A stretch of DNA of 17,205 nucleotides from the NCBI GenBank assembly GCA_018304385.1, contig JAGVWJ010000035.1, positions 1-17,205 of the forward strand, in the 5' to 3' direction. The notes below the pieces were generated by a model. That model made no database searches, was not told where the DNA came from, and saw only the letters and a list, made by a program, of their open reading frames with translations. The stretch comes from Candidatus Micrarchaeota archaeon. GTDB taxonomy: Archaea; Micrarchaeota; Micrarchaeia; Anstonellales; Bilamarchaeaceae. Position numbers and translations under genes: made by a program. The stretch's first letter is position 1, and each line of letters opens with the position of its first letter. This document shows, piece after piece, positions 677 to 16,950 of the stretch.

Positions 677-707
677 GCCATCAGCCGTCAGCCGTGAGCA
701 GTGGGCC
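677..707. repeat. Heptamer array (GCCATCA GCCGTCA GCCGTGA GCAGTGG GCC)
   Basis: 7-nt period read directly; its first 17 nt are identical to 14883-14899. Confidence 0.85.
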
Positions 708-742
708 AGACGAGTTTCCCGAATCCAGTTTCGCGTTCGTGG

Positions 743-777
743 GCTCAAGGCTCAATGCTCATTGCTCATGGCTAAAC
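743..777. repeat. Heptamer array (GCTCAAG GCTCAAT GCTCATT GCTCATG GCTAAAC)
   Basis: 7-nt period; abuts the secY stop; inverted relative to 677-707. Confidence 0.85.
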
Positions 778-2222
778 TATTGCCCAACCATTTTCCCTAA
801 AGTTGGATATAGTTCGAACATCTTCATCTGTTCCATTTGTTCGTACATTCTATATAAAATACTAACCGTAAGCAGAATACCTGTACCAGTTCCAAGTGCG
901 CCAGTTAAGTCTGCAATACCTGCTAACATACCAACACTAAAGCTACCTAATACTGTAAGCGGGAAAATGTGCTTATTCAAAATGCTCTCAAGCATGCGCG
1001 GATCACGCCTGAAGCCAGGTATCTGCATGCCTGCTTCCGTAAGCTGATTTGCAACACTCTTTGCATCCATGTTTGCTGTTTCAACCCAGAAAATACCGAA
1101 TAAGATAGATGACAGAGCTAAAAATAGTATATACACTAGCGCATGCACCCATTCAGGAATGCCGTTAACTGGTGTTTTTCCATTAGATAAAAGGTTAAAA
1201 TGATCCACAGTTCTTAGCCCACCCGAAGCTATGGGGGTTATAAGATAAAGCAAACCGTCAGATAAACGATTGGTTCCTGGATCAACATATCCAATGTATT
1301 TGGCAACAAAATTATCCTGTGCCTCCTCAGGGCTTAACTTCGGTAAAAATCCACCAGCTATAAGTTCAACATTAATTAATAATGCGCTAGCAAATATGAC
1401 CGGAATATTTGAAACATAAAAATATTTTAGCGGAAGCTTTGGTACAAAGCCACGCATACGCTCAAAAGCAATTGGTATCTCTACCTTAATACCTTCAGCA
1501 TAAACAACTACAAAAAATACAATTACAGTAAATAAAAATGGTAATAATACGAGCAATGCATCAGGCAATGCAGTTGCACCCCCGCCAGAGAGTGCAGCAA
1601 GAACGCTATTATTCGGACCAAATACTAGAAGGGCTAGCTGACTGAATATCTGGAATGAAACACCTGCGGCTATAAATAAGCTTATTCCGCTTCCTATGCC
1701 ATACTTTGAAACTATTTCGTCAAGATATAGCATTATAACTGAACCTAATGCAATTTGCAATATTACTAATGCAGGCAAGAATGGGAATTGTGCATAAAGG
1801 TTAGGGTCAATAAGAAAACCCCTAGAACTAACTACAAAAATAGCCGCTTCTAAAAATGCAAGCAGTATTGCAACTACTTTCTGCACTTCATGAAATTTTT
1901 GCTTGTCCTTTTTATCCTGAAGATTTAATTTGATTAACCCCGCACCAACAAATAATTGTAAGAATATACTTGCTAAAACAATTGGACCAATACCAGCAGT
2001 AAGTAAGCTGCCAGCTCTGCTTGCTGTTATTGTCTGAAGAAAATCAAAACCTCCTGCTTGGTGCCTAATACCAAATGCAGTGACATTATACAGTAGAAAA
2101 AATAGAACTAATGCTAAACCAGTCCATAATAAACGCTCTTTAGCAGAAGGAGGCCGCTCAGGATTTTTTACCTCTGGTAAGGATTTTGCTACTGAGTGCA
2201 AAAAGTCTATAATCATTCCCAT
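777..2222 (-). CDS. secY: Preprotein translocase subunit SecY (Sec61alpha)
   Basis: 481 aa multi-TM protein with LPEVKNP, GSLLTAGIGPIVLASI, YGIGSGISLFI, NIPVIF, QIPGFRRDPR and GTGTGILLTV motifs; follows rpl15. Confidence 0.98.
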   Translation of the reverse strand: MGMIIDFLHSVAKSLPEVKNPERPPSAKERLLWTGLALVLFFLLYNVTAFGIRHQAGGFDFLQTITASRAGSLLTAGIGPIVLASIFLQLFVGAGLIKLNLQDKKDKQKFHEVQKVVAILLAFLEAAIFVVSSRGFLIDPNLYAQFPFLPALVILQIALGSVIMLYLDEIVSKYGIGSGISLFIAAGVSFQIFSQLALLVFGPNNSVLAALSGGGATALPDALLVLLPFLFTVIVFFVVVYAEGIKVEIPIAFERMRGFVPKLPLKYFYVSNIPVIFASALLINVELIAGGFLPKLSPEEAQDNFVAKYIGYVDPGTNRLSDGLLYLITPIASGGLRTVDHFNLLSNGKTPVNGIPEWVHALVYILFLALSSILFGIFWVETANMDAKSVANQLTEAGMQIPGFRRDPRMLESILNKHIFPLTVLGSFSVGMLAGIADLTGALGTGTGILLTVSILYRMYEQMEQMKMFELYPTLGKMVGQ

Positions 2223-2251
2223 AGCTCACAACTCAAAACTACCTGCTTTTG

Positions 2252-2302
2252 GCCGTTAGCTCTTAGCCGTTAGCCACTAGCTACTTGCCACCTACCACTA
2301 GC
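2252..2302. repeat. Heptamer array of 7 units (GCCGTTA GCTCTTA GCCGTTA GCCACTA GCTACTT GCCACCT ACCACTA)
   Basis: 7-nt period; abuts the rpl15 stop. A shorter run, GCTCACA ACTCAAA ACT, lies at 2224-2240 next to the secY start. Confidence 0.88.
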
Positions 2303-2716
2303 TTATTTTAATTTAACTAATTCCCCACCTGCCTTTTTAACCTTTTCTTCTACGCCCTTACTCCATGCAGATGCCTTAATCACAACTGGAAAAGAAAGTT
2401 CACCGGTTCCAAGAATTTTTCCATTAAATTCAAAATAATATTTACTTTCTTTTTTCTCTAATTTATTATTCCTTGCTTTTTGATTTATCGCATATAAGTT
2501 TATAACATCTGTAATTTTCTTATTTGGTCTAACAAAACCATGCTTTCCAAAATAATCTGGATCGTAACGTGTTATCCAAGTAAACTTATGCTTATGTAAA
2601 CCAGCTTTACCACGGCCACCCCTGTTACCACTGCCTCTACGATTTTTAACATTGCCTCTACCAAATGAACGCAAGCCTAAGTAATTTTTCTTTTGTCTTT
2701 CTTTTCTTCTTGTCAT
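2303..2716 (-). CDS. rpl15: 50S ribosomal protein uL15
   Basis: RGSGNRGGRGKAG, FGKHGF, KILGTG and KVKKAGG motifs; synteny. Confidence 0.96.
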   Translation of the reverse strand: MTRRKERQKKNYLGLRSFGRGNVKNRRGSGNRGGRGKAGLHKHKFTWITRYDPDYFGKHGFVRPNKKITDVINLYAINQKARNNKLEKKESKYYFEFNGKILGTGELSFPVVIKASAWSKGVEEKVKKAGGELVKLK

Positions 2717-2718
2717 AA

Positions 2719-14882: not shown

Positions 14883-14939
14883 GCCATCAGCCGTCAGCCA
14901 TGGGCATTAGGCCACGTTTCGTTTGGCTCATTACTAAGT
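14883..14939. repeat. Heptamer arrays downstream of nusA (GCCATCA GCCGTCA GCCATGG GCATTAG GCCACGT ... GCTCATT ACTAAGT)
   Basis: 7-nt period; shares 17 nt with 677-693. Confidence 0.82.
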
Positions 14940-15367
14940 TACATGCTTCTTCTAGTCTTCAAATGCAATGTAGCATTAAATTTTCTTTTTAATAGAAGCT
15001 TAGCAGCCTTTATCCTTTCGCCATCCTTGCCAATTGCAATGCCACGATCTTTTTCTTCAACAGTAAGAACAACTGCCTGTTCCCCCATGATATTATTAAC
15101 CTCGATAGAGATAATTCCTATATTGCTAAAAAGGTTTCTAACAAATGGTTCAAGCTCATTACTATTTGCAATGATGATTACTTTTTTACGGAGCGCAGAT
15201 TTTAATTTCTCTATATTAAAACCTTTTTTTCCTATTGCCTTGCCTAATTCAGTAGCATCAACAAGAAAAAGCAGCATTGATTCTGTATTTAGATAATCTA
15301 GTGGCATAACCCCAGTAATTTTCTCAAAAATAGAAAAATAAGAAAGATCTTCACTGCTAATTTCCAC
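14939..15367 (-). CDS. nusA: Archaeal NusA (two KH domains), GTG start
   Basis: FEKITG, GKAIGKKG.NI and GIAIGKDG.RIK.A KH motifs; follows rpl30e. Confidence 0.95.
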   Translation of the reverse strand: MEISSEDLSYFSIFEKITGVMPLDYLNTESMLLFLVDATELGKAIGKKGFNIEKLKSALRKKVIIIANSNELEPFVRNLFSNIGIISIEVNNIMGEQAVVLTVEEKDRGIAIGKDGERIKAAKLLLKRKFNATLHLKTRRSM

Positions 15368-15375
15368 AATATCAA

Positions 15376-15825
15376 CTATTTTTTCTTAACAAGTTCTAAT
15401 AAATTAGAAGCGCCAACATCATAAACAGAAAGCAAACTTACAGAGAATGGCTTTCCGCATATAGAACCAAGCTCCATATTGTTTCCGTCAAATTCAATAA
15501 TAGGAGTTTCTGAAGACTTTGAGTATTTGAGTATATCATCCTTTACATCACTTGGAATATTGCTCGCAAGAACAAAAAGTTTTACTTTCCCTAAAACAGA
15601 ATTTTTCAATCCCTTTCTAGAACCGAAATCTACCTTTCCACTTTCAACAGCTAATCTTATTGCACTAGAAAGCGGATGCTCTTTGTCCTTTTTAGATTTT
15701 TTTCTTCTTATTACCCGCTTTTTTGGTTTATAATCATCTTCGTTTTCTTGTTCGGTTGACTCTTCAACTTTTTCTTCGCTAGCTTCTTCAGTATCTTTTG
15801 TTTCTTCTTTCTCTTCTTCAGTCAT
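15376..15825 (-). CDS. rpl30e: 50S ribosomal protein eL30 with a ~50-aa charged N-terminal extension (start refined to 15825)
   Basis: AVESGKV.FG, ELGSICGKPF and DVG.SNLL motifs; SD GGTGA at 15831-15835. Confidence 0.93.
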   Translation of the reverse strand: MTEEEKEETKDTEEASEEKVEESTEQENEDDYKPKKRVIRRKKSKKDKEHPLSSAIRLAVESGKVDFGSRKGLKNSVLGKVKLFVLASNIPSDVKDDILKYSKSSETPIIEFDGNNMELGSICGKPFSVSLLSVYDVGASNLLELVKKK

Positions 15826-15845
15826 TATAATCACCAAGCTCAATT

Positions 15846-16907
15846 TCAAGATTCTTTAGTTTTCGCTTTTCTCTTTGCCTTGATAGTTAACCTTATTTTC
15901 CCAGTACCAACCGGCACAGTCTGTCCAACAATAATATTTTCAGTAACACCTATAAGATTTTCATCTTCAGCAAATGCACTTGCCTCAATTAAATGCTTAA
16001 CTGTTTCTTCAAATGCAGCACGACCAAGCACACCAACCTTCTGACCACTTAAACCATGACGACCAATAGACTTCACAACTCCATCAAAAGTCATTGCATC
16101 TGCAACAAGCATTATATGTCTTACATCTACATAAAGTTTTTGTAGCTCCATAACATCATTTATTTCTTTTATGATTGCATTTCGAGCTGCTTCAATGCCA
16201 TAAACGCGCTCAATCTCCTTTATGTTATTTGTATAAACGCGCTTAGGATCAACCGCCTCGTGCGTAACCACTCCAACTATATTGCTTCCAGCAGCACGTA
16301 TAAAATGCTCACCTTCCCCTCGGACTACTACTGCCCGATTTACCCCAGCAACACCCTTAACTATTGATGACTTTATTTTATTTGCGAGTTTACGAACATA
16401 TTTTGATGTTATTTCTTTTGGTTTTTCCTCACTCTTTTTCTTCTCTCTTGTTGGATTAAGAATTATCTTTGACTCGATTATTTTAAGATTTGGTGAGTAT
16501 TCTTCTATTGCCTTTCTTAATGCAGCGAAGCTAACATTCAGCGCTTTGCCATCTTTTTCGCTGTAGGTTATTGATATTGTTCTTTCTGCTAAATCATCCT
16601 CAACTTTTGCAATATCTCTAACAAATATGCTACTAATATCGCGGGCTACTTTTTCAGCTTCGCTTTCGCTTCTATAAGCGCTTTTCAAATGTATATCAAT
16701 AATTGGTTTTTTGGGTGCCTTTTTTGCATCAACAAGTTCAATTAAACGAGGTAAACCAGTTGGTACGTGCTCTGCAACACCAGCGTAGTGGAATGTACGC
16801 ATTGTCATCTGCGTGCCAGGCTCGCCAATACTTTGTGCAGCAATTACACCAACTGCTTCGAAAGGAGCGATCATTGATTTTTTAGATTTATCATCTTTTT
16901 CTGCCAT
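15846..16907 (-). CDS. rpoA2: DNA-directed RNA polymerase subunit A'' (Rpo1C; start refined to 16907)
   Basis: [55 protein letters not shown] and [10 protein letters not shown] motifs; SD GGTGA at 16913-16917. Confidence 0.98.
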
Positions 16908-16929
16908 TAAAATCACCATAAATATTACT

Positions 16930-16950
16930 GCTCATTGCCAATTGCAGTTA
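16930..16950. repeat. Heptamer array (GCTCATT GCCAATT GCAGTTA)
   Basis: Three units overlapping the rpoA' stop. Confidence 0.65.

Follow-up and report, generated by a model that had tools for sequence, protein, structure and literature searches.

Heptanucleotide repeat modules in the ribosomal operon of a Micrarchaeota genome and their possible relation to PF05635 genes

The ribosomal operon contig and its arrays

The present study concerns arrays of degenerate heptanucleotide repeats in a 17,205-nt stretch of archaeal DNA, and their relation to PF05635, the family of "23S rRNA intervening-sequence proteins" with an Avd-like four-helix bundle. This stretch, hereafter the window, is the entire 17.2-kb contig C42 of a Candidatus Micrarchaeota genome (G000; 1.53 Mb, 37% GC, 89% complete). 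The genes of the window lie on the minus strand throughout and follow the archaeal order rpoA'-rpoA''-L30e-nusA-uL3-uL4-uL23-(orphan)-uL2 ... uS5-uL30-uL15-secY-adk; no match to Rfam was obtained for the window, and no tRNA was found in it. The arrays are located between these genes and, in uL3 and uL24, inside them (Table 1). The nearest relatives of G000 are its congener G001 (~70% nucleotide identity) and the sister species G002 (~75% nucleotide identity).

The arrays were scored by period-7 self-identity against random genome windows of equal length, and Tandem Repeats Finder (TRF) was also run. A preliminary description of this DNA had listed about 12 period-7 arrays, and 10 of the 12 intervals are individually significant (empirical p<=0.005), with self-identity of 0.54-0.86 at period 7 and background values of 0.07-0.47 at periods 5, 6, 8 and 9; positions 14926-14939 (p=0.10) and 16930-16950 (p=0.03) are weak when taken alone. 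Period-7 arrays were reported by TRF at 677-699, 742-773, 2252-2302, 3310-3331, 7612-7647, 14340-14359, 14749-14796 and 14883-14901. The GCY anchor described for the plus strand is correct and corresponds to RGC on the coding (minus) strand, where the unit reads NNNNRGC, most commonly as TGAGCNN, and the contacts described with the stop codons of secY, L15, S5, L23, nusA and rpoA' also hold. The coordinates stand, though not the division into separate arrays: 677-707/743-777, 2224-2240/2252-2302 and 14883-14917/14926-14939 each form one element. As one hairpin, the secY-adk spacer has a folding energy of -40.4 kcal/mol (z=-3.6). For the L15-secY array, the uL24 array and the element next to nusA, folding is no better than in shuffles.

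Ten independent assemblies from other samples cover this region with 2 mismatches in 77 kb, neither of them in an array, and no indels; in the array bases, 0 mismatches and 0 indels were observed in 2136. Thus, the arrays are neither an assembly artefact, a possibility considered from the beginning, nor variable in length within the population sampled.

Table 1. Heptamer arrays of the window, their composition and their surroundings
Feature	Position	Strand	Units and structure	Surroundings and relatives
secY-adk hairpin, sense arm	743..777	-	TTAGCCA TGAGCAA TGAGCAT TGAGCCT TGAGCCC; 5 GC anchors	begins 2 nt past the secY stop (TAG, 779-777)
secY-adk hairpin, spacer/loop	708..742	-	contains ACGAACGCGAAAC, like the AAACG(AAACG) loops of other copies	
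secY-adk hairpin, antisense arm	677..707	-	GGCCCAC TGCTCAC GGCTGAC GGCTGAT GGC; 5 GC anchors	reaches the adk start region; final unit also serves as Shine-Dalgarno-like GGCGA
L15-secY array	2224..2302	-	twelve in-phase heptamers, RGC/RGT anchors	occupies the entire L15-secY spacer, between stop codon TAA (2305-2303) and start codon ATG (2222-2220)
S5 array	3311..3331	-	three sense units AGTTAGC AGTGAGC AATGAGC	S5 stop (TAG, 3328-3326) within the first unit
uL24 array	7574..7650	-	degenerate, GCAGTAR-type	in frame, translated in the variable C-terminal tail, which is ~10 residues longer in G000 than in G001
L23 array	12755..12789	-	TGRGT-type, sense	follows the L23 stop (TGA, 12796-12794) and precedes an orphan 146-aa open reading frame (ORF) that starts at 12745; uL23/uL2 junction in G001 is 15 nt, with neither array nor orphan ORF
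uL3 internal array	14344..14406	-	nine-unit quasi-palindrome, centre TGGGCCCA	in frame at residues ~111-132
uL3 leader hairpin	14749..14797	-	(TTAGCNN)3/(NNGCTAA)3, z=-3.5	immediately ahead of the start codon; missing from the G002 leader, which otherwise aligns
nusA asymmetric hairpin	14883..14938	-	2-unit left arm, loop AAACGAAACG, 5-anchor right arm	directly follows the nusA stop (TAA, 14941-14939); site empty in G002 and G001
rpoA'/rpoA'' array	16930..16950	-	three weak units TAACTGC AATTGGC AATGAGC	within a spacer of 28 nt, which is 2 nt in G001

A dispersed family of five-unit modules

The arrays of the window belong to a family that is dispersed over the whole genome. In a genome-wide motif scan, RGC repeated four times at period 7 was found at 176 loci in G000, as compared with 0-10 loci for the other periods in the range 5-12 and 2 loci in a third-order Markov shuffle, and T[GC][AG]GC repeated at least three times at period 7 was found at 111 loci, with 0-1 at other periods and 0 in the shuffle. 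The period-7 signal is therefore far above both controls, and a dispersed family with constant period and constant GC anchor, as first described for the window, is confirmed genome-wide. The merged array loci number 217, and the size of the family can be put at ~110-220 loci, located at ~8% of gene junctions; ~46% of the array loci lie outside ORF calls, which span 92% of the genome. The window holds 9 merged loci, which corresponds to 0.52/kb vs 0.138/kb elsewhere (Poisson p=8e-4, with no correction for the 65 contigs). No significant enrichment was observed per gene junction (4/28 vs 115/1498, p=0.27), and the density of array loci is higher still on another contig. This genome-wide spread without enrichment per junction indicates that the arrays are no property of the ribosomal/RNA polymerase superoperon, whose junctions they had been thought to mark. 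An excess at contig ends, which would be a sign of assembly breaks, was not observed either (5 observed vs 2.8 expected, p=0.15).

The unit consensus is T-[G>C]-[A>G]-G-C-[A/C]-[A/G/T], with a leading GC ahead of the first full unit, and the module measures ~31 nt. Five in-phase GC anchors per arm were counted in 68/111 arms, four in 26/111 and six in 6/111. The variable dinucleotide is identical between adjacent units in 14% of cases and between random pairs in 16%, and the mean pairwise distance among whole arrays (10.86) is the same as in a column-shuffled null. Where two arms form a close pair, 16/16 pairs read 5'-(TGAGCNN)n-loop-(NNGCTCA)n-3' and none the opposite order, and the loop is frequently AAACG(AAACG) or its complement. 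When the arms are aligned in register, 91% of the core positions pair as compared with 34% of the variable positions; in other words, the hairpins are 5-bp helices with 2-nt mismatches between them. These results bear out the original impression that the arrays are unlike slippage microsatellites, as the resemblance between neighbours does not exceed that between random units, the unit count peaks at five and the polarity is fixed.

The modules are located preferentially behind stop codons. Sense arms start from -8 to +12 nt of a same-strand stop in 34/71 cases and antisense arms in 4/40, and the stop codon is the TGA within the array in ten cases and the TAG of a TAGC unit in four. The median gap is 4 nt from stop to array and 38 nt from array to next gene, with 32 arms nearer the stop vs 12 nearer the next gene (p=0.004). 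Because TGAGCNN repeats give TGA in all three frames, sense arrays cannot lie within ORFs, and part of the stop-adjacent placement follows from the array sequence itself; the same all-frame-stop argument has been published for TAACTGA repeats (PMC4679880). In paired elements, the outer 5' arm is always sense, and the orientation of the loop relative to the direction of transcription has no clear bias. Some copies are antisense or in frame within genes, as in uL3 and uL24. The 63-nt array of uL3 corresponds to an insert of ~19 residues, observed only in G000 and G002 among 30 relatives, and between these two genomes the GC anchors are identical at 17/18 positions and the remaining positions at 18/45 (p=6e-5). 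Since the reading frame rotates through the uL3 heptamers, the constraint is at the nucleotide level and not at the protein level.

Changes in the array complement were observed between related species. The orthologous 19.9-kb operon of G001 contains 0 period-7 TRF rows vs 12 in the window, and no array was found in G001 at any junction shared with the window. In G002, the uL3 leader retains its promoter and hairpin, but neither of the arrays on its two sides in G000 is present; a different array is located at L30e/nusA. In the 280 kb of G002 examined, ~8 of the 12 G000 arrays that were informative correspond to clean empty sites; 3-4/12 are common to both genomes, but the G002 copies use its dominant unit TAAGC/TAGGC. 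Within the order, TSRGC x4 was found in only 5/176 genomes (G000, 80; G015, 14; G009, 11; G002, 4; G154, 3), which belong to three genera. The preliminary description had proposed to look for variation in unit number at the orthologous junctions of close relatives; differences in presence and absence between species were observed, and no change in length was seen in the ten assemblies. At one empty site (G000 C38:19897-19971 vs G002, L076), the final codons in G002 are GGGCAATTGACAGTGG, and G000 has GGCAATGAGCAGTGG plus a full hairpin and a slightly shorter ORF; the site may be a remnant after deletion, or arrays may begin from unit-like seeds.

Several other features of the operon were also recorded. 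The 146-aa orphan ORF (window 12305-12745, minus strand) splits uL23-uL2, among the most conserved adjacencies; it has no Pfam match, no relative except itself among 5.8 billion proteins, and a native third-position GC (0.24), and it is missing in G001 and identical in the ten independent assemblies. The 62 nt just 5' of the uL2 start (window 12190-12250; ...ATGCTGAGCATAAGGATGGTAGAAGACGATG) are 85% identical to the rpoA'' leader of G002 (L033:7193-7254), and this likeness suggests a portable leader ahead of unrelated genes. Between nusA and uL3, G002 carries a 3.4-kb insertion with a 1101-aa ORF (L033:2931-6237), where G000 has only a 200-nt spacer. The uS5-uL30 spacer (window 3141-3326) contains a perfect hairpin, TTGTCGGCATGG...TGCCGACAA (~3276-3306), and a block, GACGGCCGACGCAGCC...GCGTCACTATGG, similar to a stretch of contig C26 (~18430-18480). 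TGCCGAC motifs occur again at window ~12255 and on contig C62, and together with the spacer hairpin and block they look like a second dispersed element family.

Heptamer arms beside PF05635 genes

Heptamer arrays of the same design were observed on either side of PF05635 genes in relatives of G000. The related Micrarchaeota genome G009 has two PF05635 genes of the canonical subfamily, both bracketed by TGAGC/GCTCA arrays with the unit of G000, and the downstream array is partly translated as the C-terminus of the PF05635 protein. The heptamers flanking PF05635 genes in G034 (GGACYCT) and G006 (GTTTTGN) are also dispersed in those genomes, with 45 matches in G034 vs 0 in four other genomes and 52 matches in G006 vs 2-23 elsewhere. 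The arm unit of the gene copy is thus the dispersed unit of the genome in G009, G034 and G006.

The association of PF05635 genes with five-unit heptamer arms extends over many phyla and is nearly universal. The best 80 loci of the gene family were collected with a single-protein query from one-genome-per-species contigs, mostly of Acidobacteriota, Planctomycetota and Bacteroidota, with a few DPANN archaea. In this set, a period-7 array lies within 200 nt upstream of the gene in 58/79 loci, downstream in 68/79 and on both sides in 53, as compared with 0-3 for the control periods 5, 6, 8, 9 and 10 and 0/75 for flanks 385-600 nt away. Five anchors is the commonest arm size (36/79 upstream, 47/79 downstream). 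Among the loci with TNRGC units, the arms are sense upstream and antisense downstream in 15 and the reverse in 0, which matches the gene-less hairpins of G000. The protein bAvd, related to PF05635 proteins, is a pentamer. Two homologues with solved structures, 2GSC (Xanthomonas campestris XCC0516) and 2RLD, were deposited with 5 chains each. For the Coxiella intervening sequence (IVS), tandem heptamers (GACAGAT) beside the S23p ORF have been reported in a paper that covers this one ORF (PMC4990558); no literature linking PF05635 to heptamer arrays in general was found.

Two further observations concern individual PF05635 loci. The context of the Micrarchaeota-type gene (G000 C22:1457-2179, L001, and L036-L042) is conserved across genera and comprises a short ORF upstream, the motif AATCGCACCGAAC and, downstream in several relatives, GTGCCTAGCGGAGCA; no Rfam match was obtained around PF05635 genes, this motif included, and the context may represent a structured RNA or else an element of its own. 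The neighbours of the gene in G000 gave sub-threshold Pfam hints only. In G006, the PF05635 cassette with GTTTTGG arms (L040, G006:C5:17696-21004) adjoins an apparent tRNA gene, and copies of the 3' part of this gene (…CCCACCGGGCCC) are located on either side of the cassette.

Interpretation and comparison with known systems

Taken together, these results suggest that the arrays of the window are probably gene-less five-unit arms and hairpins of a heptamer cassette family associated with PF05635. The module consists of five GC-anchored heptamers, either single or as an inverted pair that folds into a hairpin. According to this interpretation, modules would be recent gains of this lineage at gene borders, in most cases shortly after a stop codon. 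They would be tolerated there and in flexible protein segments, occasionally in frame, as in uL3 and uL24. The same inverted arms would bracket the PF05635 gene in the full cassette, of which the window copies would be the gene-less counterparts, and the ribosomal operon would have been colonised like other loci, without a dedicated system. A pentameric PF05635 protein might dock on one arm, one heptamer per protomer, and this interaction might drive the spread or maintenance of the arms. The inverted arms of about five heptamers, sense on the 5' side, are present in G000; a PF05635 ORF between the arms is absent from all window copies and from 16/16 hairpins of the genome.

Several observations weigh against this interpretation. 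The single PF05635 gene of G000 (C22:1805-2179) has no arrays on its contig and belongs to a Micrarchaeota subfamily (MTQNFKNLKVYEEAF...) other than the canonical one of G009, and a tblastn search of G000, which is 89% complete, gave no homologue of the array-flanked gene type of G009. The PF05635 copy of G154 has arms of a different heptamer, G015 has 14 arrays and no PF05635 match, and in G001 a PF05635 gene is present without any TGAGC-type arrays. PF05635 proteins have no known catalytic activity, and their binding to heptamers is something that we infer. Moreover, no target-site duplication is recognisable at the G002 empty sites, at ~75% nucleotide identity, and no identical or near-identical array copies were found in G000. 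This last result and a mean distance equal to the column-shuffled null give no sign of a recent copy-and-paste burst. The earlier suggestion of an actively propagated element fits the behaviour of the arrays as lineage-specific gains. The proposed link to four-helix-bundle genes holds in relatives and across phyla.

More tentatively, the five-unit arm could be the docking site of a pentameric PF05635/Avd-like protein, within a widespread and so far undescribed repeat-plus-protein system of bacteria and archaea. As part of this still speculative proposal, gene-less arms may settle at gene borders and inside genes as essential as those of ribosomal proteins. If so, the conservation of the GC anchors in uL3 and the species-specific unit types of orthologous arrays would point to an active, sequence-specific maintenance or rewriting rather than passive decay.

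Three other explanations have to be weighed against the cassette interpretation. The arrays might be cis elements useful to the host at the RNA or DNA level, which stabilise 3' ends, provide sites for processing or protein binding, or modulate termination and re-initiation from one cistron to the next. The tight placement of sense arms after stops, the stable hairpins of some copies (secY-adk and the uL3 leader), the retention of the 5-nt core in >100 copies with randomised variable positions, and the anchors of the uL3 insert conserved across species are all consistent with such a role. However, we regard it as unlikely, because the arrays are missing from all orthologous junctions of G001 and most of the G002 junctions tested, the junctions of the window are not enriched, several arrays fold no better than shuffles, loop orientation is without clear transcription bias, and antisense and in-frame genic copies exist. 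The placement after stops is itself open to another explanation, since a TGA in all three frames means that selection alone would exclude sense units from ORFs, as argued for other repeats (PMC4679880). Conserved processing sites that punctuate the polycistron, an idea of the preliminary description, are unlikely in particular, as the orthologous operon of G001 is free of arrays and a search of G000 for an RNase III gene (PF14622) was negative. Individual copies may still have an RNA role at the level of the host.

REP/REPIN-like palindromes (REP, repetitive extragenic palindromic; REPIN, REP doublet forming hairpins) or palindromes of the miniature inverted-repeat transposable element (MITE) type, mobilised by a transposase unrelated to PF05635, such as a REP-associated tyrosine transposase (RAYT, or Y1) or another, would explain the short imperfect palindromes at gene borders, their species-specific distribution, the empty sites in the sister species and, for MITEs, the inverted arms. 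This seems still less plausible, since neither a Y1/RAYT gene (PF01797) nor a PF13366 nuclease was found in G000 (89% complete), neither target-site duplications, at the identity of the sister species, nor near-identical copies were recognised, and a heptad periodicity with a constant count of five units is foreign to REPs. Among the candidate partner genes named at the outset, a four-helix-bundle gene is thus present (one PF05635, unflanked), a RAYT transposase was not found, and there is a single reverse transcriptase gene, which is group-II-intron-like and split. This gene (G000:C2:18337-19364; L171:2838-3865) comprises two ORFs that overlap, is cut off by the end of its contig and has a TGAGC-type array 10 nt beyond its stop; it was rejected as a driver, and the one array nearby looks like coincidence. 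Replication slippage, which would make the arrays ordinary heptanucleotide microsatellites, is the least credible explanation. Heptamers are the commonest class of long simple sequence repeats (SSRs) in many prokaryotes, in so far as Mrazek et al. 2007 is reported in PMC4679880, and the heptamers of the Coxiella IVS vary in unit number (PMC4990558). Nevertheless, the random resemblance of neighbouring units, the sharp peak at five units instead of a geometric fall-off, the single polarity of the pairs, one core at >100 loci and ten assemblies without length variation leave hardly any room for it.

Short inserts in universal ribosomal proteins, such as those of uL3 and uL24, and unusual spacers in the operon that is most conserved in the genome can be repeat insertions and not lineage-specific functional features, and caution is required in annotation. 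Heptanucleotide repeats of prokaryotes have been unexplained since the short tandemly repeated repetitive (STRR) sequences of cyanobacteria were described, and are usually attributed to polymerase slippage. G000 has a form that slippage cannot explain, namely a fixed five-unit module with a 5-nt core, two free positions and one hairpin polarity, and the same design brackets one small gene family, with solved members deposited with five chains, in relatives and in many phyla. A docking system, if real, would explain the long-noted excess of heptanucleotide repeats in prokaryotes.

Among known systems, the IVS of Coxiella burnetii and Leptospira with an S23p/PF05635 ORF is similar in that inverted terminal repeats form a stem round the gene (PMC4990558), and in that GACAGAT heptamers lie beside the ORF; in relatives of G000, PF05635 genes are located between TGAGC-type arms. 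Unlike the IVS, the G000 elements are gene-less and located between or inside protein genes, not in helix 25/45 of 23S rRNA with excision by RNase III. Their arms, degenerate modules of five units, pair with mismatches at regular intervals, and RNase III was not found in the archaeal host. The TAACTGA repeats of Beggiatoaceae, cyanobacteria and Bacteroidetes (MacGregor 2015, PMC4679880) are likewise dispersed heptamers at gene borders, with stops in all frames in forward orientation, which overlap or abut ORF ends and have rare copies within ORFs, in their case at protein termini. However, they consist of exact units in 2-6 or more copies, mostly just 5' of start codons, whereas the G000 arrays have two free positions per unit, a five-unit rule, common inverted pairs and a location mainly behind stops. 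The STRRs of heterocystous cyanobacteria, long SSRs (Mrazek et al. 2007 via PMC4679880) and the G-rich Xanthomonas and Nostoc heptamers (PMC4692102) share with G000 a 7-nt period, many mostly intergenic loci, a patchy phylogeny and an unexplained function. Dispersed, mainly intergenic head-to-tail 7-nt units are indeed present in G000; those families have near-identical units and variable copy number attributed to slippage, whereas the G000 arrays are pattern-constrained five-unit modules with free positions, a peak at five and no length variation. No archaeal case was found among the published heptamer-repeat families in the literature searched.

Rickettsia palindromic elements, said to have been described by Ogata et al. 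in 2000 as in-frame, translated inserts in essential protein genes, resemble the copies in uL3 and uL24. They differ from the G000 arrays in their length of 100-150 nt, in being without heptad periodicity and in having no known associated gene family. REP/bacterial interspersed mosaic element (BIME)-RAYT systems have a Y1 transposase instead of a four-helix bundle without known nuclease or transposase activity, and the heptad periodicity of the G000 arms sets these apart. Nevertheless, REP/BIME repeats are also short, palindromic and lineage-specific and are located in spacers, often just after stops, and their pattern of a single-copy gene flanked by the dispersed repeat of its genome recurs with PF05635 in G009, G034 and G006.

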